Program-made: the position numbers and the translations under genes
The notes under the pieces: generated by a model
What the model saw: the letters and a program-made list of their open reading frames with translations, nothing else
Databases searched by the model: none
Told to the model about the DNA's origin: nothing
IMG/VR virus record: IMGVR_UViG_3300005336_000008
Direction: 5' to 3' (one strand)
Origin: a virus
Length of the DNA: 56,024 nt
Part shown: positions 121 through 56,024 of the stretch, piece by piece
How the letters are laid out: every line of letters starts with the position of its first letter
Position numbering within the stretch: position 1 is the stretch's first letter

Positions 121-399
121 CAAACTCCCTGGCAGAAGCAAATTACAGCTTCGAATACGCAACTCCAAGCAGCACAAATGCAACTTAAGGCCGCGCAAGA
201 GCGTGTGGCGCAAACCAAGAAAGGCAAAGCCGAGGCTAAGAAGCCTATCAAGACAACCGCGACTCCAACTCGTACAACTCAGTCGGTAGTGCATCATCAC
301 CACGGCGATCAGGTAACAATTGAGGCATCAGGCGCAACTGCAAATGCAGTTAAATCCGCACTAGATCGTCACTCCTTCGACAAGCGAAACCGGCGATGA
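1..399 (+). CDS. Tape measure protein, C-terminal segment. It continues 52848..56024 across the circular junction, and bases 1..120 duplicate 55905..56024.
   Basis: Position 1 is in frame with the ATG at 52848 once 1 is mapped to 55905. The frame is open to the TGA at 397..399. The joined product is about 1151 aa. Confidence 0.85.
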   Translation, partial: LGQGSAALPFLEGIRQGTPKQQNEFIKNLKGRNAALLDALQTPWQKQITASNTQLQAAQMQLKAAQERVAQTKKGKAEAKKPIKTTATPTRTTQSVVHHHHGDQVTIEASGATANAVKSALDRHSFDKRNRR

Positions 400-881
400 T
401 TACTACATTGTTCGTATCAGGTGTCGCTGATAGCTACGCAAGTCAGATTGAGCTAGATACGCTTATCTATCCTTTGTTCAAATTCGGCTGGACGCCAGAT
501 TTAAACAGTGGTAGTCCTTTTCCAAAAACGAATTCATCAGGTAGTTGGAAATCACGGTCCAAAGTTGATGCAATGACCATTGAGATGAATGGTGCAATTC
601 TCGCAGATACAACTGCTGACTTCTGGACAAGAAGAAAAGCTCTAGTTGCAAAGCTAGTTCCACCACCAACCTTTGTAGGTGTAGAACTAGATCACGTGAG
701 ATTCGCAGCAACCTTTGATGGTGATGCAACTGTATATTATGCAGACTGTGTATTAGAGTCTAACATTGGAGCACTAGAAGCGACGGGAGCGCCTACAATT
801 CAAGAGTTCCAATGCATGTTTACTTGCAAGGACGGCTATTGGCGCTCAGGTTCTCCACTAGGTGCATTAGTAGTTATCTAA
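396..881 (+). CDS. Tail-module protein in the position usually held by a distal tail protein. Function not recognised.
   Basis: 161-aa ORF. Its ATG overlaps the tape-measure stop (ATGA), and it lies directly downstream of the tape measure. Confidence 0.65.
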   Translation: MITTLFVSGVADSYASQIELDTLIYPLFKFGWTPDLNSGSPFPKTNSSGSWKSRSKVDAMTIEMNGAILADTTADFWTRRKALVAKLVPPPTFVGVELDHVRFAATFDGDATVYYADCVLESNIGALEATGAPTIQEFQCMFTCKDGYWRSGSPLGALVVI

Positions 882-1181
882 ATGGCAACTGTCAACCAAA
901 CTCTAAGTTGTACAGGAAATGCTGTACCCATAGTCCAGAAATTTCCCGCAAAGATACAAACTGCAACTGGTACAGGATCGGTAAGTATCCTCAAAATACC
1001 AGGGAGAGTATTATCTCGTACGGCAGTTTCAACTCCTGTGATTGCACTACTGAGATTTGGAATTGATACTTTTGATATTGTACAAGTTTCAACCCGATGG
1101 TTTATTAAACCTGTCGATAGTGTTACTGCAAGAGCCCAAAAGAGATTTGGAATTATGGTGAGAGGTAGGCCAAATGGCTAG
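882..1181 (+). CDS. Hypothetical tail-module protein
   Basis: 99-aa ORF that abuts the previous stop. It contains ATGTGSVSILKIPGRVLSRTAVS, which resembles the repeat unit of the 40198..42588 protein. Confidence 0.6.
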   Translation: MATVNQTLSCTGNAVPIVQKFPAKIQTATGTGSVSILKIPGRVLSRTAVSTPVIALLRFGIDTFDIVQVSTRWFIKPVDSVTARAQKRFGIMVRGRPNG

Positions 1182-1503
1182 CGGAATCGGGATCGTTCAA
1201 GGCACTAAGGAGATTATTCCGGTTGAGGTAGTTGACAAGTCGGGTCTAACTTCTGATCTTTCTACTGCCTCTCCAAAGTTTTGGTTTCAGGCACCTGATG
1301 ATTCTTATGTATATGACAATGTGGCTACAACTGCTTCTGGAATGATTATGATGCCATTGGTTGATACAAGTTCAGGTGGCCCAGGTGGATTGCTTGATGT
1401 CGGTACTTATCGTATGTATGTTGGTTGGACTAACGGTTCGGAAGTGGTGAAGAAGTTTGCTGCCTTCGTGACGATTGGACTAGCTGAACTAAATGGCAGT
1501 TAA
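1174..1503 (+). CDS. Small tail-module protein, a distant paralog of 42588..42896
   Basis: 109-aa ORF. It shares the pattern GMI..PL(V/I)D(T/S)...G(T/R)Y(R/K)(M/L)(Y/F) with the 102-aa ORF at 42588. Confidence 0.6.
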   Translation: MASGIGIVQGTKEIIPVEVVDKSGLTSDLSTASPKFWFQAPDDSYVYDNVATTASGMIMMPLVDTSSGGPGGLLDVGTYRMYVGWTNGSEVVKKFAAFVTIGLAELNGS

Positions 1504-2641: not shown

Positions 2642-3045
2642 TGGCTAATAACTTTGAACCCAAATCTAAGAGTGTGGTGGATTGGCTCTCGGAAAGGGCG
2701 AATCGTCATAATTCTCGCTTAACTGAATTAGAGATTGCACGACTTGGTAAAGTTTGGATCGATCCAGGTATCCTTGCAGGAATCTATACTTGGCAGAATG
2801 GTTTTGATAGCGCCGGCGATCCTTACTATCCTTTCCAGTATCGTTTGTATGATCGTGACCATTTGCAAGTGAATGGAACCATCTCAGATTCAGGTCCTAG
2901 CGGTAGTTTAGGATTTACGCTTTTGCCTCCATTTTGGCCCACAAAAGATCAAGCCGTGTGGGGCAACGTGGACGTAAGCGGAGAAGTGCAGTTATGTGTA
3001 ATCAGGATTGTTTCTTCGAATGGACAATGTTTCATTAATTACTGA
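2641..3045 (+). CDS. Hypothetical tail protein. I moved the start to the ATG at 2641.
   Basis: The ORF track gives 2605..3045. The ATG at 2641 forms a TAATG overlap with the upstream stop and gives MANNFEPKS... Confidence 0.6.
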   Translation: MANNFEPKSKSVVDWLSERANRHNSRLTELEIARLGKVWIDPGILAGIYTWQNGFDSAGDPYYPFQYRLYDRDHLQVNGTISDSGPSGSLGFTLLPPFWPTKDQAVWGNVDVSGEVQLCVIRIVSSNGQCFINY

Positions 3046-7390: not shown

Positions 7391-7536
7391 TCTTTAGTCA
7401 TCTATTCAAAAGGAGAAAAAAGTCCACCAATAGAGATATTATTGATGTAAAACGTCGTCAGAAAGCTGTTGAGATAGAACTACGTCAAGTTGAGCAGGTT
7501 ATCGCCATTGCACGAAGAAGGGGGTCTAATCGGTGA
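7387..7536 (+). CDS. Small basic protein. I trimmed the start to the ATG at 7387.
   Basis: It lies in the frame of track ORF 7300..7536. The ATG at 7387 forms an ATGA overlap with the upstream stop. The sequence is MIFSHLFKRRKKSTN... Confidence 0.4.
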   Translation: MIFSHLFKRRKKSTNRDIIDVKRRQKAVEIELRQVEQVIAIARRRGSNR

Positions 7537-7961
7537 CTGACCTAATCGCGGATTGGACGACAGCGGGGCCATACAAAAATTTAACTTGGGTCACGATTAC
7601 GTTTACTGCTGTCGTCATAGTAGCACTTATTTTCGTGACTTTTGAATTTTGGGATTCATGGAAAACATATCGTGCTGTACGAAAAGGAGGACAAAACGGA
7701 CGATTTTTACTTCTAGCAGAAAGTAGCGTTAGACGTAGCGTTGGAAGATTCGTTATTCAGTTAGTATTCCTGATGCTTGCATCAGTAGCGATTTCTATCT
7801 CAGTCACCGAAGATAGATCACATTTATATTGGTATCGTGTTGCATTCGTTAGTACGTTTCTTGTTGCAGAGGTAGTCTCTTGTCTATTAATTGTGAATGA
7901 TGTAGTCACAAGGCATAGACTTGAAAAGATGATTCATGATTCATTTAATAAGGAGCCATGA
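7533..7961 (+). CDS. Multi-pass membrane protein, holin-like or lysis-associated
   Basis: 142 aa with three hydrophobic segments. It sits just upstream of the endolysin. Confidence 0.6.
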   Translation: MTDLIADWTTAGPYKNLTWVTITFTAVVIVALIFVTFEFWDSWKTYRAVRKGGQNGRFLLLAESSVRRSVGRFVIQLVFLMLASVAISISVTEDRSHLYWYRVAFVSTFLVAEVVSCLLIVNDVVTRHRLEKMIHDSFNKEP

Positions 7962-8077
7962 TGAACGCACAATTAACGTTATGGGAAGCTGATCCAGATG
8001 CGCCAACGCCAGAAGATGAACCTAAAGAACCTGATAGTGAAGAAGGGGAAGGAACTGTTCCTCCTGAGGACGACTAA
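7958..8077 (+). CDS. Possible small acidic ORF (39 aa)
   Basis: MMNAQLTLWEADPDAPTPEDEPKEPDSEEGEGTVPPEDD. It fills the gap between 7961 and 8080 and overlaps the upstream stop. It is below the ORF-track size cutoff. Confidence 0.3.
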   Translation: MMNAQLTLWEADPDAPTPEDEPKEPDSEEGEGTVPPEDD

Positions 8078-8079
8078 TT

Positions 8080-8853
8080 ATGGCAACACCTAAAGTACCA
8101 CTTTGCAGAACACTACAGCGCGGTATGACCGGGAATGATGTGATCGCGCATAAACGCGCACTTTCACACGCATTCCCCGATTTGTACCCGTGGTGGAAAC
8201 GCGGATTTTCTCCGCAGTACGGCACAGCATTCGAGAATGCTGTTAAGGGTGCTCAGTTAATTATGAAGGTTCCCGTTACCGGGAAGATCAACAAAGTCAC
8301 TCACGATGCGCTTCGTCAAAGACGGACAGCACGTCATAGAACTGAGTGGGCTTTTGATGATTATTCAATTCATCTTGCAGAGGTCTATTGCGCTAATCAC
8401 AAGAAGAAGAATAAGCGACAGCTTGCAGTAGAAGCAGGATTTTACTGGTATGCACATCGCTATGATATGGATGCATACAGTCAAATGCGTGCTTTTATTC
8501 TATGCAAGCCTCCGACAGTTCCCAAAAAGTGGGATTGTAGCGCAATGGTTACAAACTGCCATTACGCTGCTGGTGCTCCCGATCCTAATGGACGTGGTTA
8601 TGATGGGCAGGGATATACTGGCACTTTAATTGGACATGGACATAAGGTTAAATTCGGTTTACTAGAACCAGGTGACTTTATCTTCTATGGTTTTCATCGT
8701 GGTGCAAGTCCTGCATTCCCTGTAGGAGCACCAACGCATGTTGCAATGTACACAGGAGGTGGAAACGTCTTAAGCATGGGAAGTTACCCAATGGGTTTCT
8801 ACAAGTACAACTATCGTAGCGATATCAATTGCTACGTTCACTACGATATTTAG
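8080..8853 (+). CDS. Endolysin: an N-terminal peptidoglycan-binding-like domain plus a C-terminal NlpC/P60-type cysteine peptidase
   Basis: The N-terminus reads LQRGMTGNDVIAHKRAL. The C-terminus has a Cys motif (WDCSAMVTNCHYAAG) and a His motif (PTHVAMYTGGGNVLSMG). Confidence 0.85.
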   Translation: MATPKVPLCRTLQRGMTGNDVIAHKRALSHAFPDLYPWWKRGFSPQYGTAFENAVKGAQLIMKVPVTGKINKVTHDALRQRRTARHRTEWAFDDYSIHLAEVYCANHKKKNKRQLAVEAGFYWYAHRYDMDAYSQMRAFILCKPPTVPKKWDCSAMVTNCHYAAGAPDPNGRGYDGQGYTGTLIGHGHKVKFGLLEPGDFIFYGFHRGASPAFPVGAPTHVAMYTGGGNVLSMGSYPMGFYKYNYRSDINCYVHYDI

Positions 8854-8862
8854 GAGGCTGAG

Positions 8863-9276
8863 TTGCAGGACCTACTAAATGCGGCTTTCAATGATACGAG
8901 AGTTCAGATTGCTCTGCTACTTCTCGTACTCGATTTCCTACTTGGAACAGTAGCCGCACTTGTTGACAACACGCAGGGCTTCCGTCTTAGCTTCATTGCG
9001 GATACCATGCGTAACGATGTGCTTGGGAAGATGGTGCCGTTCTTCATTCTGTATGGTGGTTATCTATATGCTGCTAATGCAGACCTAGTGATCCCTGGAC
9101 TCGATATGGAAGTGCTTATGAACGCTGCTTGGGTTGTTGTTCTTGCAGCATTCGTGGGTTCTATCCTTAAGAGCGTGACTGATCTAGGTCTATTTAAGCA
9201 GTTGCAGAGTGATGTTCCACAAGTTGCCGGACCTGATCCTGTTACGCCAGAAGTTCCGGCACCACCTAATCCTTGA
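8863..9276 (+). CDS. Holin-like membrane protein with a TTG start
   Basis: 137 aa with several hydrophobic helices. AGGAGG lies 5 nt upstream of the TTG. It is immediately downstream of the endolysin. Confidence 0.7.
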   Translation: MQDLLNAAFNDTRVQIALLLLVLDFLLGTVAALVDNTQGFRLSFIADTMRNDVLGKMVPFFILYGGYLYAANADLVIPGLDMEVLMNAAWVVVLAAFVGSILKSVTDLGLFKQLQSDVPQVAGPDPVTPEVPAPPNP

Positions 9277-9365
9277 GCACAAATGATCTATTAACGGTTC
9301 TGAAAGTAATTCTAGCAATTTTGCTAATCATCTTACTTATCAGAATCTTGTTCTAACTTTCAAAG

Positions 9366-9394
9366 TTCTCTCTCGTTCAGGGCCAGAGAGAGAA
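9366..9394. terminator. Hairpin with a 9-bp stem (TTCTCTCTC/GAGAGAGAA) in the convergence zone
   Basis: Read directly from the sequence. It lies between the end of the plus-strand late arm and the 3' end of the minus-strand tRNA. Confidence 0.4.
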
Positions 9395-9397
9395 GCA

Positions 9398-9438
9398 GAG
9401 GGAGTCACCTTTACTCCTGGGGTGGCTCCCTCATTTTT
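9398..9438 (+). terminator. Intrinsic terminator candidate for the late (plus) arm
   Basis: A 12-bp stem with one mismatch (GAGGGAGTCACC / GGTGGCTCCCTC) is followed by ATTTTTG on the plus strand. Confidence 0.6.
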
Positions 9439-9444
9439 GTGCAA

Positions 9445-9528
9445 TGCCGACGGAGGGACTCGAACCCTCAATCCTTTACAGGCGTCAGATTTTAAGTCTG
9501 ATGTGTATACCAATTCCACCACGTCGGC
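9445..9528 (-). tRNA. tRNA-Leu, anticodon UAA, type II with a long variable arm. No CCA is encoded.
   Basis: I folded the cloverleaf by hand. The acceptor stem is GCCGACG/CGTCGGC. The anticodon stem is TCAGA/TCTGA with loop CTTAAAA. The T arm is GAGGG-TTCGAGT-CCCTC. The D loop contains GG. Length is 84 nt. Confidence 0.9.
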
Positions 9529-9534
9529 ATGAAT

Positions 9535-36887: not shown

Positions 36888-37083
36888 GTCTATAGCCTCC
36901 TAGCTAAGACTTATACGTGCTATTGCGACCCTGTGACACTGTACGTACACTGGACGCCGTAGCGGTTTTGCTTGTTCTGATTAATACCAATTGCGGATAA
37001 TTCGGAGGTTACGCTTAATCTTTCGATGTGAAGGGTTATAACCCAGGAAGTACAGGAAACGATCCCACATGATTTACTCCTGT

Positions 37084-37317
37084 CTAGTTAAGCCACCACA
37101 TTTCGGCGGCGATCTTAGTGTCAGTAACAGGCTTACTGTTATTCAAGTGCTCTGCACACCTACGCTTAGTCTTGCCTCCCCCATTCTCGACCATCAGTAC
37201 GGGATTGGTACATTCGGCAACGTGGCACTTCTCAGTCTTGACGTGAATACAAAGCTGAGTATTAGCGGACGGACCGAATCGGCGCTTATTCATCAGACTA
37301 GACCGCGTGCGTGCCAT
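37084..37317 (-). CDS. Small basic Cys/His-containing protein
   Basis: 77-aa ORF with GGGAGGAAAATAA upstream of the ATG. It has its own promoter at 37349..37377. Confidence 0.6.
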   Translation of the reverse strand: MARTRSSLMNKRRFGPSANTQLCIHVKTEKCHVAECTNPVLMVENGGGKTKRRCAEHLNNSKPVTDTKIAAEMWWLN

Positions 37318-37348
37318 TTATTTTCCTCCCGTTCGATGTAGTAGATAG

Positions 37349-37377
37349 ATTGTAGCTTATGTGTGGGGTAGTGTCAA
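37349..37377 (-). promoter_or_regulatory. Sigma70-like promoter, TTGACA-N17-TACAAT
   Basis: The -35 is at 37377..37372 and the -10 is at 37354..37349. Confidence 0.6.
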
Positions 37378-37382
37378 GTAGA

Positions 37383-37415
37383 GGGAAGGGCCAATTTTGT
37401 GTTTTGGCCCTTCCC
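37383..37415 (-). terminator. 12-bp hairpin (GGGAAGGGCCAA / TTGGCCCTTCCC) after the first early gene
   Basis: Read directly from the sequence, with a 9-nt loop. It lies between the stop at 37426 and the next promoter. Confidence 0.5.
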
Positions 37416-37425
37416 CAACTTCGCA

Positions 37426-37695
37426 CTAGCCGTTATTGTAATCGTGGTCGAGTGTGATCGATTGAATCAGGCTACGCTTCTGCGCATTCTGGCTTGCGCG
37501 AGTGATACGCTTCGCGTGCTCATTCGGGGTACGTGTGCGGACGAATGGGATGCGAGTACCGTCGGGGAAGATCGAGACACATTCGCCGGATTTCGTGCCG
37601 GAGCCCTTCCAACGTTCTGACACTCGCCTGGTCGTAGAAGTAATGGCACCGAATGCCTTAGCATCGGCTGCATTCTGCATTCTTGCGTCTCGCAT
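37426..37695 (-). CDS. First early protein of the minus arm (89 aa, basic, GC-rich)
   Basis: GGGAGGCATC lies upstream of the ATG at 37695. Overlapping alternative frames look spurious. Confidence 0.6.
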   Translation of the reverse strand: MRDARMQNAADAKAFGAITSTTRRVSERWKGSGTKSGECVSIFPDGTRIPFVRTRTPNEHAKRITRASQNAQKRSLIQSITLDHDYNNG

Positions 37696-37836
37696 GATGC
37701 CTCCCGTTCTGTTTGGCGACTTCGAACTAACAAGAGGAACTATATGCCCGTGGGAAGGAAAGTGTTGCCGCTATCAATTTCTAACTCCATTCTCAAATTT
37801 TGAAAAAGGGTCCCATATTTACCACCCATTCTAATT

Positions 37837-37865
37837 TTGATGCACCACTAGAGTCCGTATACACT
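37837..37865 (+). promoter_or_regulatory. Plus-strand promoter candidate, TTGATG-N17-TACACT, ahead of the late arm
   Basis: The -35 is at 37837..37842 and the -10 is at 37860..37865, about 47 nt upstream of the ATG at 37912, which has a GAGGTGA RBS. Confidence 0.45.
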
Positions 37866-37911
37866 TCACACAGAAGCCCCCAATTTTGCCTACAAAAAAT
37901 GAGGTGAACGA

Positions 37912-38280
37912 ATGGATCTAAATGATGCAGAAGATATCCTGAGTGAACCTCAGGACTTTGGTAGTTTGTCAGAATCACTTAAGGACTATCGGAAGTCTTT
38001 AGAGGAAGAATTCAAAATTGCCTCTACAGGAACTTCCGAGGATATCGCTGATGAGGCAAGAAAGAAACTTGCACTATTACTACCGGATGCGTCTAATAAG
38101 TTAGCGCAGATTTTGCACACGGGTGGAAAAGAGGATGCAGTACCATTAGCAGCAGTTAAGCTAGTTTTCGAGTATACAATCGGAAAGCCTGGAACAAAGA
38201 AAGTGGAGGAAAGCGATTACAACAAGATTCTGAAGGACCTCATGAAAAAGCCAGATGAAGAGCCAGCAGAAAAGGAGTAA
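37912..38280 (+). CDS. Hypothetical acidic protein, the first gene of the plus arm. A small terminase role is possible but unsupported.
   Basis: 122-aa ORF with an RBS. No recognisable motif. Confidence 0.6.
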   Translation: MDLNDAEDILSEPQDFGSLSESLKDYRKSLEEEFKIASTGTSEDIADEARKKLALLLPDASNKLAQILHTGGKEDAVPLAAVKLVFEYTIGKPGTKKVEESDYNKILKDLMKKPDEEPAEKE

Positions 38281-38791: not shown

Positions 38792-39193
38792 ATGGCTTTC
38801 GGTGTAGCTACAGTCCTTACTAACAAAGGTAAGGCACTTTTCGCAGATCGCGCAAGAACCACGCCAGGTACATATTCCACTTCTCCTAAGTTCATCGGAA
38901 TTGGAACTGGCGCAACGGGAGCAGCAAGAACAGCAGTAGCAGCGGATACAGCATTAACGACCGAAGTTGAAACTAGAGCCTCAGGAACTGAGTCAACAGT
39001 TACAACGACTCAGACAGGTGACACTTATCAGTCCCAGGGCACAGTTTCAATTACAGCAACTAGAGCAGTAGATGAGTCGGGACTATTTGACGCATCTACT
39101 TCTGGGAACATGATTACCTCTGCAACGTTAAGTGTAATCAACCTCCTAAACGGTGACTCCCTACAGTTAACCTGGAAGGTGCAGATCACATAA
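38792..39193 (+). CDS. Tail-collar-fibre N-terminal-domain-like protein (DUF3751-like)
   Basis: LTNKGKALFADRA....FIGIGTGATG...ESGLFDASTSGNMITSATL resembles the tail-collar fibre pattern. Confidence 0.45.
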   Translation: MAFGVATVLTNKGKALFADRARTTPGTYSTSPKFIGIGTGATGAARTAVAADTALTTEVETRASGTESTVTTTQTGDTYQSQGTVSITATRAVDESGLFDASTSGNMITSATLSVINLLNGDSLQLTWKVQIT

Positions 39194-39236: not shown

Positions 39237-40157
39237 ATGAAAAAGCAAAGTCTCTTCTTGCTCGCAGCATTAGGTGCATTAATCGCAGGAGGTTATGCTG
39301 CTTCTGCGCTAATGGCGACGGAAGTGACTGAGACGCACACTGTACCGTTTAATGTCGTCGTCGGAGACAAAACGGTTTCAGATCAATACGTGCTGACAGA
39401 CACAGACACAATTCCTGATCCGGTTACGGTCACGGAAACTTCGCCGCCAGTTACAGTTACCGTTACTACGACAACACCTACTAACACAACTCCAACAACG
39501 CCGACTGATACAACGCCTACAACACCTACTACTCCAACAGGCAATAATTTAATCCTACCAGACAATACAACTTGGCGTTGTACTTCAAATGTAAATTATG
39601 ATCTTGTAAAAGTTAATATCACACAACAGGAACAACGACAGGATGCAGTATTCCTTTCAAGTGGTTGCACGGGTCACATCGGACGTTTAGAAGTTGATAC
39701 GTGGGCGTCTGATGGAATCCACATTGGTCCATTTGCTGAAAATCTAACGATTGATGGTGGTTACGCAATCGTGCATGATCGCTGTGGTACTGCTTGTGAT
39801 CCGTTACACGCAGATGTAATTCAGGTACTCGGTGGTTCCAACATCACGTTTAACAATTTCAATGTTGAACTACAGTATTCTGAGCGCACTAACTCCGCAC
39901 TTTATATTAACTGCGGAAATAACTGCCAGCAGCGACCTACAGATATCGTATTCAACAATTCAACGTTTAAGAGAACACCTGATAAGAATCGTGTAGTTCG
40001 AATTGGAAATTCCGTCAGAAGTGGTATTCGCAATTCAACGGTCTATTGGTGCGGTACAGGTTCAGAGTGTGATGCACCTACAGCACCAGCAATTTGGTTT
40101 AATGGATTGCAGACCGATCCTGTAAATGAGAACAATACACTAATTACTTACGGATGA
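39237..40157 (+). CDS. Exported or anchored protein: signal/anchor, Thr/Pro-rich linker, then a Cys-containing beta-helix-like domain
   Basis: The N-terminus is MKKQSLFLLAALGALIAGGYAASALMA. The linker is TVTETSPPVTVTVTTTTPTNTTPTTPTDTTPTTPTTPTG. The C-terminus has N-rich repeats (NITFNNFNV, FNNSTF, IRNSTVYW). Confidence 0.65.
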   Translation: MKKQSLFLLAALGALIAGGYAASALMATEVTETHTVPFNVVVGDKTVSDQYVLTDTDTIPDPVTVTETSPPVTVTVTTTTPTNTTPTTPTDTTPTTPTTPTGNNLILPDNTTWRCTSNVNYDLVKVNITQQEQRQDAVFLSSGCTGHIGRLEVDTWASDGIHIGPFAENLTIDGGYAIVHDRCGTACDPLHADVIQVLGGSNITFNNFNVELQYSERTNSALYINCGNNCQQRPTDIVFNNSTFKRTPDKNRVVRIGNSVRSGIRNSTVYWCGTGSECDAPTAPAIWFNGLQTDPVNENNTLITYG

Positions 40158-40197: not shown

Positions 40198-42588
40198 ATG
40201 ACTCTCGCTCTAGACACCTTCACTAAAACAGCACTCTTTACGGGTGATTCTAGTACCAACCATACTCCTATTGGTACACCTAAAGCTGTCCTCGTCTGTA
40301 TTGCTCAGAATGGTACTGATGCAGATGAAATGGCGGGAGTCACTTATGGTGGCGTAGCCATGGCACGATTGACCAATGGCTTCGCGAAAGATACGGCGAC
40401 CGAATTTATGGCGTCGTATATTTATTTCTTAGGTTCAGGTATTCCAACCGGGACACAAACGGTAAACTTCGATACATCAGCAGTTAATGGTGATAAAGTT
40501 GCATGGATTATTACTTTAACAGGAGCAGCTAATACAGCAGTTGAAGCTTCTGGAGTCGCCCAAGAGAACCAAGCAAACCCAACTGTCGTTCTTACTACCG
40601 GCGCGAGTGTAGAAACATGGGCAATGAGCATTGTCATGTCCGGTCAGGGTACACAAGCTGCATTTACGTCTGGTACAGGATTCAGTAAACTAGATAACCA
40701 TGACTTCGGCCAGCAAGTTGCAGTTCTAGAAACAATCGACACGAATGATGCTGGTGGTAATGTAACTGTAGGATGGACAGCTACTACTGATGATGTCGCA
40801 ATGGTTGCAGTTGCGATCAAGGAACTTACGGGATCAACTCAATTTGCAACTCTAAGTGCATCTGGTTCAGGAAGTCCAGTTTTGCAAAAAACTCCAACTA
40901 AGGTCTTGTCGGGAGTTGGAACTGCGGCTCGAGTTTTGATTCGTGCACCAGCTAGATCACTATCTTCTAGTGGAACTAGCGTTCCTGTACTTAGAAGGAT
41001 TCCTAGCCGTTCACTTTCGGCGGCTGGAACTGGAGTTGTATCTTTAGTTACTTCCAAAGTAGTTATTAGATCCTTAAGTGCAACAGGTACGGGAATTAGC
41101 ACACTTGTACGTTCACCTATTAGACTGCTCTCTGTAGTTACATCTGGTGTAGCAACTTTCGTACGTTCTCCATTGCATATTTTCTCTGTTGCAAGAACTG
41201 TTACTCCAAGTTTAATTAGAAGTCCAATCAGAAGCCTGTCTGTTACGGGAAGTGGAACGGCCACATTAGTTAGAAATCCGATTCGAAGTCTACTTGCTAC
41301 AGGTGTTGGAACTGCAACTGTAGCAGCATTAAAACTAAGTTTAAAGACATTAAGTGTTACTGTTACTGGTGTGGTGTCTTTGATTCGAGAACCGCGAAAA
41401 ATTCTTGTAACCTCAGGATCAGTTACAGTAGTAGTTACACTAATTCGTGATATCTCAAGAAATCTAACTGTATCAGGAGCCGGCGTTGCAAGTATTACGC
41501 GTTCTCTCTCACGTACATACTCTATTCAAGCAAGTAATGTCACGTCTCTGGTTCGTAGCGCTCAAAAGATTCTTGTTACCACTGGATCAAATGTTGCAAC
41601 ATTTGTACGTACGCCTATCAGGGCATTAAGCATAACTGCAGTAGGTACAGCAACTTTCATCAGAAATCCATTACGAACATTAAATGTAATTGGCACATCA
41701 ACAGCAACTCTCTCCGTTATCAAAGTACGACTAGCGGAGTTCGCAACTACAGCAACTGGATTAGCATCATTAATCAAAAATCCGCAAATTAATCTCTCGG
41801 TTCTAGGTACGGGAGGGGCATCCGTAGTACGCTCTATATATACTGTGTACTTGGCTGCTGGAACTGGCTTGGCTACACTAGTTCGGGTGCCTGCCCGTGT
41901 GCTGAGTTCAGTCGGCACGGGAGTAGCATCCTTAACCAGCCTAAAAGTGAGACTAGCTTCATTTACTGCAATTGGAACGGGGACGACAAGTTTAATTAGA
42001 GCACCAATTAGAACATTAAGCACAATTGGAACAGGAATAGCATCACTCTCAATAACTTCAATCATCTTAAGGACATTCAATGTTACAGTAACAGGTGTTG
42101 CCTCATTAAGTAAATTACCATCGCATGTATTTAGTGCAACATCTAGTGGGGTGGCATCATTAACAGCAGCAGCCTTACAATCCGCAGTATTTACGACAAC
42201 TGCTACCGCAGTAGCCTCAATTCGTCGAGCGCCGCAGGTAAGTTTAAGGGTTACAGTAAATGGAATTGCAGTACTAGCCCGTTTGGTAAGTTCAACATTT
42301 TCTACGACTGGTTCTGTTATTGTGACAATGATTCAATCGACGGCTACGACGGTTGAATTCTTTGTAACTGCAATCGGAAATACTACCTTAATCAGATCAG
42401 TACAAAAAGTACTAGAGGTTACAGGAACAGGAATCGCAACATTAACAACACAAGTATTCCAGAACGCTGGAATGATTATTGCAAGTGGTATTGCATTAAC
42501 TCAGTGGTCTGGACAGGCTCTACTTAGATTCTCAGGTTACGCAATCGAGCATCTCAGAGGTAAACCAATGAATCCGAAAGATATGTAA
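40198..42588 (+). CDS. Repeat protein: an N-terminal globular domain of about 210 aa followed by about 29 tandem 18/20-residue repeats. Fibre-like.
   Basis: I parsed the repeats by hand from residue about 215 to about 770. The consensus is L-S-x-x-G-T-G-x-A-(S/T)-L-(V/I)-R-x-P-x-R-x. Confidence 0.8.
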   Translation: MTLALDTFTKTALFTGDSSTNHTPIGTPKAVLVCIAQNGTDADEMAGVTYGGVAMARLTNGFAKDTATEFMASYIYFLGSGIPTGTQTVNFDTSAVNGDKVAWIITLTGAANTAVEASGVAQENQANPTVVLTTGASVETWAMSIVMSGQGTQAAFTSGTGFSKLDNHDFGQQVAVLETIDTNDAGGNVTVGWTATTDDVAMVAVAIKELTGSTQFATLSASGSGSPVLQKTPTKVLSGVGTAARVLIRAPARSLSSSGTSVPVLRRIPSRSLSAAGTGVVSLVTSKVVIRSLSATGTGISTLVRSPIRLLSVVTSGVATFVRSPLHIFSVARTVTPSLIRSPIRSLSVTGSGTATLVRNPIRSLLATGVGTATVAALKLSLKTLSVTVTGVVSLIREPRKILVTSGSVTVVVTLIRDISRNLTVSGAGVASITRSLSRTYSIQASNVTSLVRSAQKILVTTGSNVATFVRTPIRALSITAVGTATFIRNPLRTLNVIGTSTATLSVIKVRLAEFATTATGLASLIKNPQINLSVLGTGGASVVRSIYTVYLAAGTGLATLVRVPARVLSSVGTGVASLTSLKVRLASFTAIGTGTTSLIRAPIRTLSTIGTGIASLSITSIILRTFNVTVTGVASLSKLPSHVFSATSSGVASLTAAALQSAVFTTTATAVASIRRAPQVSLRVTVNGIAVLARLVSSTFSTTGSVIVTMIQSTATTVEFFVTAIGNTTLIRSVQKVLEVTGTGIATLTTQVFQNAGMIIASGIALTQWSGQALLRFSGYAIEHLRGKPMNPKDM

Positions 42589-42896
42589 TGGCTATTGCAC
42601 AAGCTACAATTCATGTACCAAAGGGTAGTATTCAATATTGGCCTGTTAAGGTCAAGGACGCTTTCGGAACTATCTTAACCTTAGATGGTTTGGACCTAAG
42701 ATATGATCTTTACAAAGATGATGAAGATGAGACGGAAATCGTAACAAACGCAATTGCAGGAAATGAAGGTATGATTGCTCAGCCACTAATCGATTCAAAT
42801 TCTTTAGATGAAGGACGTTATAAGCTCTTCATCTCTTTTGCTGCATCACCACAAACGCCAAGATTAGGTCCTTTCTTCTTTCAGGTAGATGACTAA
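42588..42896 (+). CDS. Small protein, a distant paralog of 1174..1503
   Basis: 102-aa ORF with a TAATG junction. The shared motif is noted under 1174..1503. Confidence 0.6.
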   Translation: MAIAQATIHVPKGSIQYWPVKVKDAFGTILTLDGLDLRYDLYKDDEDETEIVTNAIAGNEGMIAQPLIDSNSLDEGRYKLFISFAASPQTPRLGPFFFQVDD

Positions 42897-44270
42897 ATGA
42901 GACTTATTCCACCAGTCGATAGAGACGAAGTATTCGAACGGATTAAGTATAAGCCTCATTCAGAGGAACAGTATAGAATCCATGATTCGTTAGCAAGATT
43001 CAGAATTCCAAGTTGTGGCCGGCGATTTGGAAAGTCACAAGCTGCTGGTCATGAAATGACTCTGAATCTTTTTATTCCAGAAACGCTTTGGTGGATCGTT
43101 GGTCCAACTTATCGACTCGGTGAGAAGGAATTCAGAGTTGTCTGGAACGATCTTAAAGCTCTAAATCTTCTGGATAAGTGCAGCACTAGACAATACAACA
43201 TTAATCAGGGTCAGATGCGTCTTGTCACTCCGATGGGATCAACGCTCGAAGTTGTATCAGCAGAGAAACAGGATACCCTCGTTGGTGAAGGTCTTGATGG
43301 TGTAATTATGTCTGAGGCTGCCAAGCATAAAATGTCTACTTGGCAGATGTACATTGAACCTGCTTTGTCTGACAAACGTGGTTCAGCAATCTTCCCGAGT
43401 ACGCCACAAGGATTCAATTGGTATAAAGGTCTGTATGATATGGGCCAGCATCCCGACTTTGAAGATTATGAATCTTGGCGATTTCCGACTTGGACAAATA
43501 AGGCAATGTACCCAGGAGGGTACGATGATCCAGAACTTGTTAGAATTCGTCGCACGGTTTCTAAACAGTATTGGGAACAAGAGTATGCGGCGGAGTTCAC
43601 TTCGTTCGAAGGACAAATCTATCCAGAATTCGATGAACGTGTTCATGTTAAAAGGCACGAGTATAATCCATTATGGTTTAACGCATGGGCCTTTGACTTC
43701 GGCTTCGCAGATCCATTCTGTTGTTACGATATCCAAGTCGATCCCTCTGACAACGTATACATCTGGCGGGAATATCAGGTCAGTCATTTAAGTACATGGC
43801 AGCATGGTCATATCTTAAAGAATCGTGAAAATCCAAATAACTTTCACGTGAATATGATGTATGCTGATCCTGCTGGTGCAGATGAAGTCGCAACCTTAGA
43901 ACTGGTGTTGGGTAAAATTTTTGCTGAACGAGTTAGTTGGCATGAAGGTATCGAAGCAGTTCGTCGTTGGATGGCTCCTGAAGAGGGACCATCAAAATTA
44001 GTTATTGATCCTTCTTGTGTCCATCTCATTCGTCAAATTCAACAGTTAAGAAGAAAAGAGAATAGAGAAGGTCATAATGAGAGAACTGGTCAGCATGATT
44101 ATGATGATCACGGACCAGATGCAATTAGATACTTCTTCTCTCAACATTTTGTGCTTGGAAGGAACATGACACTAGCGTCCGTATATACTAGGCGGGGAGA
44201 GCGCGAGAGCGATGCGTTCTTTACGTACTCTAGTGGTTTTAAACTAAACGACAGTATCTCATATGGCTAA
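42897..44270 (+). CDS. terL: Terminase large subunit
   Basis: Walker A is CGRRFGKSQ and the Walker B-like motif is LDGVIMSEA. The nuclease region has MYADPAGADE. 457 aa, followed by the portal gene. Confidence 0.85.
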   Translation: MRLIPPVDRDEVFERIKYKPHSEEQYRIHDSLARFRIPSCGRRFGKSQAAGHEMTLNLFIPETLWWIVGPTYRLGEKEFRVVWNDLKALNLLDKCSTRQYNINQGQMRLVTPMGSTLEVVSAEKQDTLVGEGLDGVIMSEAAKHKMSTWQMYIEPALSDKRGSAIFPSTPQGFNWYKGLYDMGQHPDFEDYESWRFPTWTNKAMYPGGYDDPELVRIRRTVSKQYWEQEYAAEFTSFEGQIYPEFDERVHVKRHEYNPLWFNAWAFDFGFADPFCCYDIQVDPSDNVYIWREYQVSHLSTWQHGHILKNRENPNNFHVNMMYADPAGADEVATLELVLGKIFAERVSWHEGIEAVRRWMAPEEGPSKLVIDPSCVHLIRQIQQLRRKENREGHNERTGQHDYDDHGPDAIRYFFSQHFVLGRNMTLASVYTRRGERESDAFFTYSSGFKLNDSISYG

Positions 44271-52678: not shown

Positions 52679-52848
52679 TTGAGGAAGTAACACTCTGGAT
52701 GCAAATCTACAGAGTATGTAGAGTGTTCAGAGCACTTCCTTATCCTGGTGGAGTCCTTAATCAGCCAAAACATGCAATCAATCGTTTACTCGCTGTAGGC
52801 GATGCACACGATAAATTTGAATCAGAAGAATTAAAGAATAAAGAATAA
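52208..52848 (+). CDS. Putative -1 frameshift fusion chaperone (GT-like), about 213 aa
   Basis: The -1 frame is open from 52591 to the TAA at 52846..52848, which overlaps the tape-measure ATG. The extension reads ...DELIEEVTLWMQIYRVCRVFRALPYPGGVLNQPKHAINRLLAVGDAHDKFESEELKNKE. Confidence 0.5.
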
Positions 52849-55800
52849 TGGCATTTCGCGGATATGAACTAAACTTGATGTTGCGCGTGCAAGATCGTGC
52901 ATCTTCAAGACTTCGTAGACTCTCTCATGATATTGGGGGAGTAAACCGCGCTGCTCAATTACAAAGAAGTGCAGGAAGATTAGCAACACAGCAAACTCGT
53001 AATCAACTTGATATGACAAAGACTCTTGCACAGCGAGAGGCTTTATTGGCACAACACGGTACAGAAAGACTTGGCACACAGTCTAGATTACTTAGACTTA
53101 AAGCCCAGGAGCTAACATTAACAGATCGCATTAATCGAATGTCTCCTGGACAGATGGTTAGTGCGAGAGGACAGGCATCACTAAAACGATTACAAGCAGT
53201 TCAGAAGGATATCATCCGAACGGAAGAACTTAGACGTATTGCCATTCGCAACAATAACACGGCATTAGCGGATCAGCTTCTTCTTGAACAGCAGATCAAA
53301 CGTGAAATCGAACAGCAAGCCATTGCACAGAGAGCAGCAGAAAAAGCTGCACTCGCACAAAGACGTGCTCGCACATTAACGCATGTTGGGTCAGCAGCAC
53401 TAATTGCTGGTGGGGTTGGAGTTGCTGCTTCCGCAGCAGCCGCAGGTTCTTTCGCAAACTTTAATCGCCTAGCAGTTGGTGCTGCTACTCAGATGCGTGG
53501 TGTAAATGAAGGATTTGAACAAACAGTAAAGATTGCAGGTGTAGTTGAATCAAGTCTATTAGATTTAACTCGCCAGTTCCCTGCGGCAGCGGATGAAATG
53601 GCACAGAGTATTTATGATATTTCATCGGGAATGACATTCCAGATTGATCGAACTTCTCGCTTAACAGAAACGCAGCAAAGATATAATCAATCCTTACGAA
53701 TTCTTAAGCTCGCAAATCAGGTTGCCGTTGCAGGTAATACTGATCTTAATACGGCAACTGATGTTCTCATTACTACATTCAACAACTTTGATCCTGCTGT
53801 TCAACGGCCAATTAAACTTCTTAATGAACTATTCGCAATTGTTAGGTTCGGTAAGGGAACCTTTGCGGAGTTCTCACCTCAAATTGGTAGATTAGCAGCC
53901 AGCGCGAGAGCCGCTGGTCAGACATTAGGAGAAGCAGGTGCAGGACTAGCATTCCTCTCTCAGCGTATGCCTCTGTCCCAGGCAACAACAGCATTAACTA
54001 GAATTTTTCAGGTCATTGGTCGGCCTGAATTTACAGCAGGTTTCGAGCAACTCTTTAAGGTGTCTCCTTTCAAGGAAGGAACGAGGCAGCTTAGAGACTT
54101 GTCAGATTTGATGTTTATTATTGAAAAACAGGGTCCGAAACTTTGGAAGGGCTTTGGAAAAGGCTCTGTAGACCTGCAGAACGTAATTAAGAATATTACT
54201 GCAGCGGGTCAAGATCTTATAAAAGGCACCACAGGTCATACTGGTTTAGTCTCAACAGAGTTCTCACGCAAAGCGATTACTGACTTTATTCTCGGTGGTA
54301 AGGAATATCGTAAAACAGTTCAAGATGTAATTGGGACTCAGGGAGAATTCTTCCGATCACTACAGGCATTCAGAAATCAGCCAGGAGTTCAGTGGCAGAT
54401 TGCGATTAACCAGTTCAAGGCATTTGGAATTGTAATCGGTCAAACTGTTCTACCTGCTATTCTAAGATTCTTTGATGCTATCAATCATTTATTAGATGAG
54501 TTCCGTGATCTAAGTCCGAGAACTCAGAAAATGATTGGACAGTTTGCAGCATACGGATCAATTTTCTTGTTCGTTGGTGGAGCGATTACAAGTGTGCTTG
54601 GTGGTTTAGCAATTCTTACTGTTAGTCTCCGTACGTTAGGAACTACAGTTGGTACAGAACAGGGCACTGGAGTTCTTGGTCGTGTTAGTGGGCTTCGTGT
54701 TGCACTTTCGGGATTAGCCGCAATTGGCGCTATCTCGATCATCCTTAAAACTGCATGGAGTGGTAATGCTACCGCAATGGACTTCATTCAAGGCGCAATG
54801 TTAGGTGCCGCTGCTGGTAGCATTTTCGGGCCAGAAGGCGCAATTATTGGTGGAGTCACAGTTCCTGTTATTATGAAATGGCTTAGTGATCGTAGTAAGC
54901 CAAAGGAAGAACTTGACTATCCACACCAGTTATATGAACAGTACAAGAGCCAGGGCAGATTCAATTTCCGCTGGTTCTGGGAAGCTGGTCCTAAGAACTT
55001 TAGTGGTTTCATGAAGGAATGGAAAGCTGATGTTGCGCGCGGAAAGCAAATCATTGCAAGAGGTCAGAAAGATCTAAATAACTTTACCTTCAAAATCCCC
55101 GGTACCAACAAGAGCGTTTTCCAGAACGCTCTTGTTGTGCCTGCTACAACAGCATTGAATCAGGTAAGTAACAAGAACAAAAACACCACAAATAGTATGC
55201 TTAAGAACTGGCAGGGTCTTGCCACACAGCTTACAGGTCTTGATCTATTTAGTGGTGTAAATCAGCAAATGGCTAATGCTGCCGTTAATGTGCAAACTAA
55301 TCTTGCGCGTGCACTAGCATTAGGGAATACTGCACAACAGCGTGCTGCAATCAATGCACAGATTGAGTCGGATAAGCGACAGGTCGCGAGATTAGAAAAG
55401 ATTCCAGCAGCAAAGCGTACCGCGAATCAGGCTAAAATTCTAATCCAGCTATACAATGATATTACACAACAGCGCGGTAGACTTGAAGCGATGGATAATG
55501 CAGCGGCAGCAGCGCAGACTAAAGCTGCTAATGCAACTAAAAAGCACAACGCAGAACTTGAACGTCATAAAAAAGCGATTGAACGAGCTAACAATGCATA
55601 CAAAACTGCCGAACGTAGAGTGGATGCACTCAAACTTAAGTTCAAGCAACTTAAGGAACAATCACTAGATCAGCTTAGAAGTGCATTCGGTGATATCTTT
55701 GGTGGACCCTTTATGCAAGGTCCCATTGGACAAGCCTTTACGGGAATCGCTAGCACACTAGCTGGATTTGGTAAGACGTTCCCTATTCCGGCACAGTTCA

Positions 55801-56024
55801 TCTTACAGGATCAACAGATTCAAAAATCCAACTTTGAGCAGCTAACCAAAGATCTTACTTTCTTGCAGAAGCGTGGTGTTGATCCAAAAACAATTCAAAA
55901 CATTTTAGGTCAGGGAAGTGCTGCATTGCCATTCTTAGAAGGAATCCGACAAGGTACTCCAAAACAACAAAATGAGTTTATCAAGAATCTTAAAGGCAGA
56001 AATGCTGCACTTCTTGATGCTTTG
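52848..56024 (+). CDS. Tape measure protein, N-terminal 1059 codons. It continues at 1..399 through the circular junction.
   Basis: The frame is open from the ATG at 52848 to the window end, so there is no stop and the ORF is absent from the track. The sequence is a helical MAFRGYELNLMLRVQDRASSRL... followed by hydrophobic GAALIAGGVGVAASAAAAG segments. Confidence 0.85.
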   Translation, partial: MAFRGYELNLMLRVQDRASSRLRRLSHDIGGVNRAAQLQRSAGRLATQQTRNQLDMTKTLAQREALLAQHGTERLGTQSRLLRLKAQELTLTDRINRMSPGQMVSARGQASLKRLQAVQKDIIRTEELRRIAIRNNNTALADQLLLEQQIKREIEQQAIAQRAAEKAALAQRRARTLTHVGSAALIAGGVGVAASAAAAGSFANFNRLAVGAATQMRGVNEGFEQTVKIAGVVESSLLDLTRQFPAAADEMAQSIYDISSGMTFQIDRTSRLTETQQRYNQSLRILKLANQVAVAGNTDLNTATDVLITTFNNFDPAVQRPIKLLNELFAIVRFGKGTFAEFSPQIGRLAASARAAGQTLGEAGAGLAFLSQRMPLSQATTALTRIFQVIGRPEFTAGFEQLFKVSPFKEGTRQLRDLSDLMFIIEKQGPKLWKGFGKGSVDLQNVIKNITAAGQDLIKGTTGHTGLVSTEFSRKAITDFILGGKEYRKTVQDVIGTQGEFFRSLQAFRNQPGVQWQIAINQFKAFGIVIGQTVLPAILRFFDAINHLLDEFRDLSPRTQKMIGQFAAYGSIFLFVGGAITSVLGGLAILTVSLRTLGTTVGTEQGTGVLGRVSGLRVALSGLAAIGAISIILKTAWSGNATAMDFIQGAMLGAAAGSIFGPEGAIIGGVTVPVIMKWLSDRSKPKEELDYPHQLYEQYKSQGRFNFRWFWEAGPKNFSGFMKEWKADVARGKQIIARGQKDLNNFTFKIPGTNKSVFQNALVVPATTALNQVSNKNKNTTNSMLKNWQGLATQLTGLDLFSGVNQQMANAAVNVQTNLARALALGNTAQQRAAINAQIESDKRQVARLEKIPAAKRTANQAKILIQLYNDITQQRGRLEAMDNAAAAAQTKAANATKKHNAELERHKKAIERANNAYKTAERRVDALKLKFKQLKEQSLDQLRSAFGDIFGGPFMQGPIGQAFTGIASTLAGFGKTFPIPAQFILQDQQIQKSNFEQLTKDLTFLQKRGVDPKTIQNILGQGSAALPFLEGIRQGTPKQQNEFIKNLKGRNAALLDAL
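55905..56024. repeat. Terminal 120-bp direct repeat, identical to 1..120
   Basis: Exact match by direct comparison. Confidence 0.95.

Follow-up and report, generated by a model that had tools for sequence, protein, structure and literature searches.

The window analysed here is the whole 56,024-nucleotide stretch of viral DNA held in IMG/VR record IMGVR_UViG_3300005336_000008. Its first and last 120 nucleotides are identical (positions 1–120 repeat positions 55905–56024), so the phage genome is circularly closed and has 55,904 bp. The gene layout is that of a siphophage: the genes for the terminase large subunit (TerL) and the portal (44263) are followed by those for the protease, the scaffold or decoration protein, the major capsid protein, the neck, the tail tube, the tape measure, the distal tail protein (Dit) and the tail tip. 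Directly upstream of TerL lie, in this order, genes for proteins of 133, 306, 796 and 102 amino acids (aa). The 796-aa protein, identical copies of which are present on 9 public contigs, combines a globular N-terminal domain with a long array of tandem 18- and 20-residue repeats (Table 1), and it is the subject of this analysis. It is very probably part of a virion fibre. We propose, at a probability of about 0.6, that it is the rope, or scaffold subunit, of a bead-chain fibre, a giant rope of ~30 units onto which copies of the 133-aa protein would be threaded.

Table 1. Features of the repeat-protein module, of the tail-tip pair and of flanking genes in the window. Daggers mark units of 20 aa; all other clear units have 18 aa.
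Feature	Position	Strand	Basis or remark
133-aa putative bead protein	38792..39193	+	Pfam PF23140, PHROG 5417/240, AlphaFold2/Foldseek
306-aa protein: signal peptide, T/P-rich linker, β-helix-like C-terminal part	39237..40157	+	between putative bead and rope genes
Putative rope protein, 796 aa, intact whole reading frame including stop codon	40198..42588	+	reading-frame translation
N-terminal globular β-sandwich domain (aa 1–210), putative distal payload	40198..40827	+	AlphaFold2, PHROG 553, Foldseek
Array of 29 clear units and 1 degenerate unit, 18 or 20 aa (aa 219–774)	40852..42519	+	autocorrelation, seed-based hidden Markov model
Starts of units 1–15	aa 219, 237, 255, 273†, 293, 311, 329, 347, 365†, 385, 403†, 423, 441, 459, 477		
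Starts of units 16–29	aa 495†, 515, 533, 551, 569†, 589, 607†, 627, 645†, 665, 683, 701†, 721, 739		
Degenerate unit 30	aa 757–774		
C-terminal tail (aa 775–796)	42520..42585	+	conserved, with unit 30, in P0018, P0021 and the L021 rope
102-aa small protein, candidate collar/adaptor	42588..42896	+	position; start overlaps the stop codon of the putative rope gene
Terminase large subunit	42897..44270	+	Pfam, PHROG; module lies directly upstream
Distal tail protein (Dit)	396..881	+	PHROG 33 at 7.8e-6
99-aa putative mini-rope: three units (aa 7–60) and a distinct C-terminal part	882..1181	+	BLASTP; directly after Dit
109-aa paralogue of the 102-aa protein	1174..1503	+	BLASTP 1e-6, 28% identical; after the mini-rope

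The array occupies residues 219–774, from which its nucleotide limits follow. Autocorrelation of this region (BLOSUM scores, compared with 300 shuffles) peaks at lag 18 (0.85, z = 15.5), with secondary peaks at lags 38 (z = 11.1), 56 (z = 12.0) and 20 (z = 6.5), and a marked two-residue alternation of the β type runs along the array. Segmentation by a hidden Markov model (HMM) grown from a few seed units gives 29 clear units between residues 219 and 756, 21 of them with 18 aa and 8 with 20 aa, followed by a degenerate thirtieth. The 18-residue units share the consensus L-S-V-T-G-T-G-V-A-S-L-(I/V)-R-x-P-x-R-x, and those of 20 residues carry an end of the (T/S)-x-K-V-x-L type in place of R-x-P-x-R. 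The longer units (numbers 4, 9, 11, 16, 20, 22, 24 and 27) recur every 2–5 units. A preliminary description of this DNA had reported about 29 such repeats behind a globular domain of about 210 aa, in agreement with this segmentation and with the structure prediction given below; the interval of 3–6 units that it gave for the 20-residue variant has to be corrected.

Individual units have diverged widely. Among the 18-residue units the mean pairwise identity is 30% for protein and 43% for DNA, and Tandem Repeats Finder detects no DNA-level array in the repeat region. Conservation between units is position-specific and falls on L1, G5–G7, L11, R13, P15 and R17. Together with the preservation of the array in a related phage (see below), this bears out the earlier view of repeats that are degenerate in the DNA, old and maintained at the level of the protein. 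The array is rich in T, S, V and A, strongly basic and almost free of acidic residues (R+K 9.2%, D+E 0.9%).

The preliminary description also held that the repeat fits no known fibre repeat family, and this stands. A Pfam search of the 796-aa protein returns no family, with neither a Hexapep nor a pentapeptide match, and phmmer finds nothing among PDB sequences at E ≤ 10. A left-handed β-helix of hexapeptides, which has 18 residues per turn, was rejected for want of a six-residue sub-period (autocorrelation −0.58 at lag 6, z = −1.7), and a pentapeptide repeat on the value at lag 5 (z = −3.7). The triple β-spiral shafts of adenovirus fibre, reovirus sigma1 and PRD1 P5 are homotrimers made of ~15-residue repeats with a conserved Gly/Pro turn. 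The array is like them in being a short, β-rich viral fibre repeat with conserved Gly and Pro positions, but its period is 18/20 and not 15 (lag 15, z = −0.1), and the linkage to a bead gene described below is not a feature of those shafts. PHROG 23524 matches the array alone, in three stretches (2.6e-10); it is a family without annotation and therefore uninformative on function. Against 50,697 GenBank phages, neither tblastn with the 796-aa protein nor blastn with the TerL–portal region gave a match.

AlphaFold2, run on the 796-aa protein as a monomer with a 15-sequence alignment, folds residues 1–210 confidently (predicted local distance difference test score, pLDDT, of 65–94 per 10-residue block, mostly 85–93). 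The pLDDT is below 50 across nearly the whole array and for 544 of the 796 residues. Since the repeat part is unfolded in the model, PDB matches of the full-length model in Foldseek, which were generic jelly-roll noise with a best E of 0.03, were not used. The array had been taken for a self-standing fibre repeat, for which AlphaFold was suggested as a check. The fibre half of that view very probably holds; the other half, a β-solenoid or trimeric shaft that folds by itself, finds no support in the monomer model, which gives the array no confident fold. Low confidence of this kind is compatible with a rope and not specific to one.

The main rival explanation is a shaft that needs no partner, in which the units would fold among themselves, probably as a homotrimer with a new β-spiral or β-helix, and the Gp80-like bead protein would help with assembly or form a fibre component of its own. 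The two-residue alternation and the conserved Gly and Pro would suit repeated hairpins, an obligate trimer is compatible with a prediction run on the monomer, and an analogous region of Alishewanella siphovirus LSH1 has yielded low-confidence 'β-helix' models in AlphaFold (PMC13243795). We nevertheless regard such a shaft as unlikely. The array has no 5-, 6- or 15-residue periodicity and no PDB or Pfam relative, and a self-sufficient shaft leaves unexplained both the invariable linkage to a bead family that needs a β-strand from elsewhere and the existence of a related array that continues, with the polarity of a rope, into a Gp77 collar domain, both of which are set out below.

The wider family of the array was collected by an HMMER scan of 1.84 billion representative proteins with residues 215–796, which found 163 relatives, 40 of them below 1e-10. 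The family is unannotated, and gene callers often overlook it. Where the sequences of relatives were read, the array lies C-terminal to globular domains or around them; P0016, P0018 and P0025 have globular payload domains inserted within their arrays, an arrangement that would also fit a self-sufficient shaft. Laminin_G_3 occurs in 10 of the 55 scanned relatives, and others carry esterase (BD-FAE), GDPD, cadherin-like, BNR or DUF4082 domains. The N-terminal domain of the window protein matches PHROG 553, 'minor tail protein', over aa 1–214 (8.3e-8). A Foldseek search of BFVD pairs it with minor tail proteins of Mycobacterium and Gordonia phages over ~210–240 aligned columns (E down to ~1e-6) and with uncharacterised phage proteins (E down to 2.5e-14). 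Homologues that share only this domain (P0001–P0015) place it before quite different short repeat types.

Unit lengths are constrained throughout the family. Across 35 family proteins, spacings of 18 aa were counted 166 times, of 20 aa 74 times and of 19 aa 19 times, and the 18/20 dimorphism is kept even in very distant arrays. This bears on the possibility that the array is a monomeric β-solenoid or an extended spacer that only holds the N-terminal domain off the particle and has neither a partner nor a defined quaternary structure. A T-, S-, V- and A-rich, nearly acid-free composition and low prediction confidence are what such a spacer might show. However, a loose spacer would not be so constrained as to keep position-specific conservation at 43% DNA identity, 38% identity between orthologous arrays over 587 aa and the same unit lengths across very distant arrays, and we consider it improbable.

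One relative, P0026 (1210 aa), connects the family to a characterized fibre. It matches the window array over ~450 residues (E = 6.8e-21) and has the same 18/38/56 periodicity. Its C-terminal end (aa 1123–1205) is a Pfam Gp77 domain, the fibre–tail adaptor of the Ralstonia podophage GP4 (8.8e-24, 84 bits against a 27-bit cut-off). In P0026, therefore, an array of the window family and the GP4 anchor domain are parts of one polypeptide, in the order rope then collar. The same array-then-collar order is common to P0026, the collar protein of the Escherichia myophage Bas63 (9mt4_G) and the window, in which the array is followed by the 102-aa gene for the candidate collar.

The P0026 fusion speaks, too, against an array that belongs to no virion fibre but works within the capsid or during packaging, for instance as a DNA binder. 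The strong excess of basic over acidic residues would favour that role, as would the position of the module, which lies directly upstream of TerL in the window and between TerS and TerL in L005 and in the uncultured podovirus MW202615. However, Gp77 is an external collar domain, the lectin, esterase, GDPD and cadherin-like domains found in relatives are typical of external proteins that bind the host, the N-terminal domain resembles minor tail proteins, and a miniature version of the array lies within the tail-tip gene block (see below). A role confined to the capsid or to packaging is thus very improbable.

The likely partner of the array is the 133-aa protein. On sequence and model evidence it is assigned to the Gp80/whisker family of bead proteins; each score is weak, and three independent lines agree. 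It matches Pfam PF23140, 'Podophage GP4 fiber I protein gp80' (2e-4, 22.2 bits), as well as PHROG 5417 (5.8e-10) and PHROG 240 (0.0056), and PHROG 240 also takes in GP4 gp80 (8e-32) and Bas63 whisker gp5 (6e-29). A profile of its family retrieves >5,500 clusters, and homologues that match the profile at E ~1e-50 carry PF23140. The AlphaFold2 model (pLDDT 76, predicted template-modelling score 0.70) contains an N-terminal strand and a helix followed by a β-sandwich. Its top PDB matches in Foldseek are two 107-aa chains of the Bas63 connector, 9mt4_K/L (prob 0.99/0.98), and it further matches the Sf14 neck chain 9c39_K (108 aa) and the phi812 arm segment 9fko_A (prob 0.98). Their size and the Bas63 paper indicate that 9mt4_K/L and 9c39_K are whisker proteins. 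The bead family has about ten invariant or near-invariant Asp/Glu positions, as against the acid-poor array, and charge pairing between the two is possible.

Proteins of this kind have been seen to assemble on extended chains. Whisker dimers of Bas63 wrap the N-terminal rope of the collar 'like beads on a string', with their incomplete sandwiches completed by the rope (PMC12609058). In fibre I of GP4 a separate rope protein carries five dimers and interlocks with an immunoglobulin (Ig)-like collar (PMC12609058); the dimers are those of gp80, and the fibre is anchored to the gp77 fibre–tail adaptor (PDB 8JOU; PMC12609058, PMC11445570). The scaffold linkers of phi812 likewise thread six arm-segment dimers (PMC13433997).

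A bead-family gene, recognized by PHROG 240/5417, Pfam Gp80 or the A2 profile, is located 0–6 genes upstream of the repeat-array protein in 12 of the 12 loci examined (the window, L003, L004, L005, L007, L011, L014, L015, L016, L021, MW202615 and Rhizobium phage RHph_TM16). Loci reached from the repeat side are L003 (P0008), L004 (P0014), L005/L006 (P0017), L007 (P0016) and L011/L012 (P0004). The L004 bead is 70% identical to that of the window; in L011/L012, P0004 is a homologue of the N-terminal domain with another repeat type, and the bead has a full Pfam Gp80 match. L014, L015 and L016 were picked from the bead side, only for their long contigs and with their neighbours not known, and after each bead there is a large protein with a globular N-terminal part and a long C-terminal array of short period. 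The units have 20 aa in L015 and also in L016, where they match the unit HMM at 5e-6. In L014 a 2817-aa protein (7410–14360) follows the Gp80-like gene and contains >1,400 residues of 14-aa units of the NSFxGNSNL type; if this array is also a rope, it is by far the longest.

Two further loci belong to GenBank phages found by tblastn. In RHph_TM16 the bead EVB27_045 is followed by EVB27_046, a protein of 1661 aa that ends in an 18/20-aa array. In MW202615 a gene annotated as 'tail collar fiber protein' precedes an unannotated open reading frame (ORF) of ~998 aa with ~35 units of 18/20 aa (MW202615.1, L023, 4710–7709). Locus L008 was not counted; the 133-aa protein upstream of its P0003 belongs to PHROG 3758 and is not demonstrably Gp80-like.

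The related phage L021 (contig ERZ28614307 scaffold_19) separates the constant from the variable parts of the module. Its bead, 102-aa homologue and TerL are 90%, 58% and 77% identical to those of the window. Directly upstream of the 102-aa homologue lies a 704-aa ORF of ~35 units (7885..9996, +) that shares 38% identity with the window array over 587 aa (E = 3e-88) and has no globular N-terminal domain. Because L021 lacks this domain but keeps the bead, what accompanies the bead constantly is the array and not the payload. The payload is optional, and the three parts that travel together are the array, the bead and the small protein encoded downstream. The L021 rope at first seemed absent because the gene caller had put three reverse-strand ORFs in its place, and GenBank MW202615 likewise annotates reverse-strand ORFs over its rope gene. 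Such annotation is a systematic error in which reverse ORFs displace real rope genes of ~700–1000 aa. Long open frames inside the array are also present on the − strand of the window (40839–41264 and 41562–42080).

We favour a rope because of the identity of the bead, the published mechanism, the linkage at 12 loci, the P0026 fusion, the lack of a confident fold in the monomer model, the comparable periods of the Bas63 rope and of GP4 gp79 (about 20 aa) and the constancy of array and bead in L021. In the proposed fibre, 30 tandem 18/20-aa units that would be unable to fold alone would each lie in the groove of one 133-aa bead and donate β-strands that complete its incomplete β-sandwich. The result would be a chain of bead dimers joined end to end, like those of the Bas63 whiskers and of fibre I of GP4. 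Fibre length would follow from the number of units; one unit per bead would give ~30 beads or 15 dimers, with a length on the order of 60–100 nm as guessed from bead size alone. The C-terminal end of the rope would be held on the virion by the small β-protein encoded directly downstream, to which the C-terminal tail of the rope might serve as the anchor. The N-terminal domain, which resembles minor tail proteins, would be placed at the free end as a binding payload. By analogy with GP4 and Bas63 the fibre may be attached at the neck, or it may sit elsewhere. Of this picture, the anatomy of the repeats, the family of the bead, the linkage of the genes and the P0026 fusion are observed, whereas threading, stoichiometry, polarity and sites of attachment are inferred.

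Several observations weigh against this interpretation. The Pfam Gp80 score of the bead is below the 27-bit gathering cut-off. Its top PDB fold matches reach probabilities of 0.90–0.99, yet their E values are only ~0.04–0.07, and hhalign of the bead family with GP4 gp80 gives E = 0.0016 at 16% probability. Neither the unit HMM nor phmmer of the array detects similarity to any of the GP4 ORFs, gp79 included, nor can sequence similarity be detected between the repeat unit and the Bas63 rope. The candidacy of gp79 as the published GP4 rope is itself not confirmed, as it has no match in PDB sequences. For the 102-aa protein, which would have to act as the collar, comparison with Gp77, BppU_N and the Bas63 collar gives nothing significant. 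A strictly dimeric bead register is not obviously compatible with the irregular order of the 20-aa units or with the super-repeat of 3 units in the MW202615 array. Finally, a low-confidence monomer model would equally be expected from an obligate homotrimeric fibre.

A short version of the array is encoded at the tail tip of the same genome. Residues 7–54 of the 99-aa ORF that follows Dit align by BLASTP to residues 218–265 of the 796-aa protein, which are the first three units (38% identity, E = 5e-9). When the unit HMM is run on the 415 ORF segments of the genome, this ORF is its best non-self match, with a weak score (E = 0.055). In the related phage (locus L022) Dit is again followed by a mini-rope, of 82 aa (9763–10011; 9e-17 to the 99-aa ORF, unit HMM 1.7e-5), and then by a 106-aa protein 56% identical to the 109-aa paralogue. 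The preliminary description had seen a repeat-unit fragment in the 99-aa ORF and had taken it as a hint that the 796-aa protein might dock with the tail tip. The similarity is real and stronger than claimed, as it covers three units. Another reading suits it better than docking: a mini-rope with a paralogous partner is conserved in the related phage, so the 'fragment' is a conserved short rope, and ORFs 882..1181 and 1174..1503 look like a duplicated module rather than a docking site. With the baseplate arms of phi812 as a precedent, the three-unit rope and the 1174..1503 product probably carry a small number of these beads at the tail tip.

The other genes of the region add some context. The 306-aa protein encoded between the bead and the rope has a weak Pfam Pectate_lyase match (0.058), and its gene is not conserved in L021. 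Its membership of the module is uncertain, and a secreted enzyme, a moron or a fibre accessory are candidate roles. The family of the 102- and 109-aa proteins has 47 public relatives without annotation. Weak BppU_N matches occur in 4 of 38 members of the 102-aa protein family, and hhalign of the 102/109-aa family with GP4 gp77, the L003 BppU_N protein and the Bas63 collar gives nothing significant. In L003 and L007 the gene after the rope encodes a BppU_N protein, an Ig-like protein of the baseplate-anchoring type. The 1371-aa tail-tip protein (3045–7160) has no Pfam or PHROG match, and no small terminase subunit was recognized among the small ORFs tested upstream of the module (37069–38280). 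The 1151-aa tape-measure ORF spans the window junction (52848..56024 to 399) and drops out of ORF lists made without regard to the circular junction.

Bead-on-rope fibres were first seen in 2023 in GP4, whose fibre I structure is reportedly that of Zheng et al. 2023, and in 2025 in Bas63 and Sf14, and these are all short assemblies of 2–5 dimers. If the interpretation given here is right, phages build far longer fibres on the same principle, with the length encoded in a tandem repeat. The window offers a clean example: a single bead gene, an array of ~30 units and a candidate anchor stand in one genome together with a 3-unit miniature. Long regions of phage fibre proteins that AlphaFold cannot fold, as in LSH1, might be explained in this way, and a very large orphan family (>5,500 Gp80-like clusters) would be linked to partner genes. 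Payloads on a stalk of programmable length would be relevant to host range and to the engineering of phage adhesins.

More tentatively, the 18/20 arrays and their sister arrays with units of 14, 16 and 20 to 22 residues may form a general, unrecognized class of molecular rulers for bead-chain fibres of any length. One unit would correspond to one Gp80-type bead, and swappable payloads (lectins, esterases, phosphodiesterases) would be carried at the free end, in thousands of phages of all tail types. Sizes would range from 2–3 units at the tail tip through the long arrays of 30–35 units to the >1,400 residues of L014. With rope genes missed by both gene callers and Pfam, such a system would have gone largely unnoticed. 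We attach a somewhat less than even chance to this broader view.

GP4 and Bas63 had already shown the principle; new are the giant regular array, the sequence family to which it belongs, the payload architecture and the occurrence in a siphophage, and no description of tandem-repeat ropes of this size or of this repeat family was found in the papers searched. In GP4 as in the window, a Gp80-family bead gene has as neighbours one gene whose product is periodic and non-globular and one that encodes ~100 aa (140-325-568-93 aa in GP4, 133-306-796-102 aa in the window). In both, the rope would be an independent polypeptide, and a Gp77 domain ends P0026, whose array is homologous to that of the window. 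The 325-aa gp79 of GP4 (MH638294, L010 10948-11925, − strand), which adjoins gp80, is G-rich with 10/20-residue periods in ~11 segments, and differs from the window protein in this composition and in having no N-terminal globular domain. Further differences are that the GP4 rope carries five dimers as against 30 units in the window, that GP4 is a podophage and the window a siphophage, and that the 102-aa protein is not demonstrably Gp77-like. Given the lack of sequence similarity to any GP4 protein or to the Bas63 rope, the likeness is one of working and not of membership in a sequence family.

The collar–whisker complexes of Bas63 and Sf14 (PDB 9MT4, 9C39; PMC12609058) provide the best fold matches of the bead model, which are chains of whisker size, and the rope-then-Ig-like-collar polarity of Bas63 corresponds to the gene order in the window. 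As read from its sequence, the Bas63 collar gp4 (9mt4_G, 166 aa) has ~65 N-terminal rope residues for 4 monomers, and the resulting ~16 aa per monomer is comparable to the 18/20-aa period of the window. Bas63 differs in that its rope is only a ~65-aa extension of the collar, with two dimers and no payload domain, and hhalign of the bead family with Bas63 gp5 is not significant. In the baseplate arms of Staphylococcus phage 812 (phi812) and Listeria phage A511, scaffold gp117 passes through six gp118 dimers and its linkers complete their β-sheets (PMC13433997). This scaffold also carries docking sites and domains and offers a baseplate precedent for the tail-tip mini-rope; unlike the window protein, it is a multi-domain wedge protein with irregular linkers and no regular 18/20-aa array. 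The 'bead-chain' neck fibre of Anabaena phage A-1(L), made of stacked trimers without a rope, was rejected as a model.

The closest published parallel to the window module is the gp34–gp36 accessory module of LSH1, three genes that always occur together (PMC13243795). It is likened here by its published description and not by sequence. Its gp34 combines a payload with a long region that AlphaFold cannot fold, gp35 is dimeric and resembles the GP4 fibril protein, and gp36 is a small Ig-fold protein (PMC13243795). The LSH1 authors proposed a gp36–gp35–gp34 chain in which the unfoldable region was left unexplained and no rope was proposed (PMC13243795).

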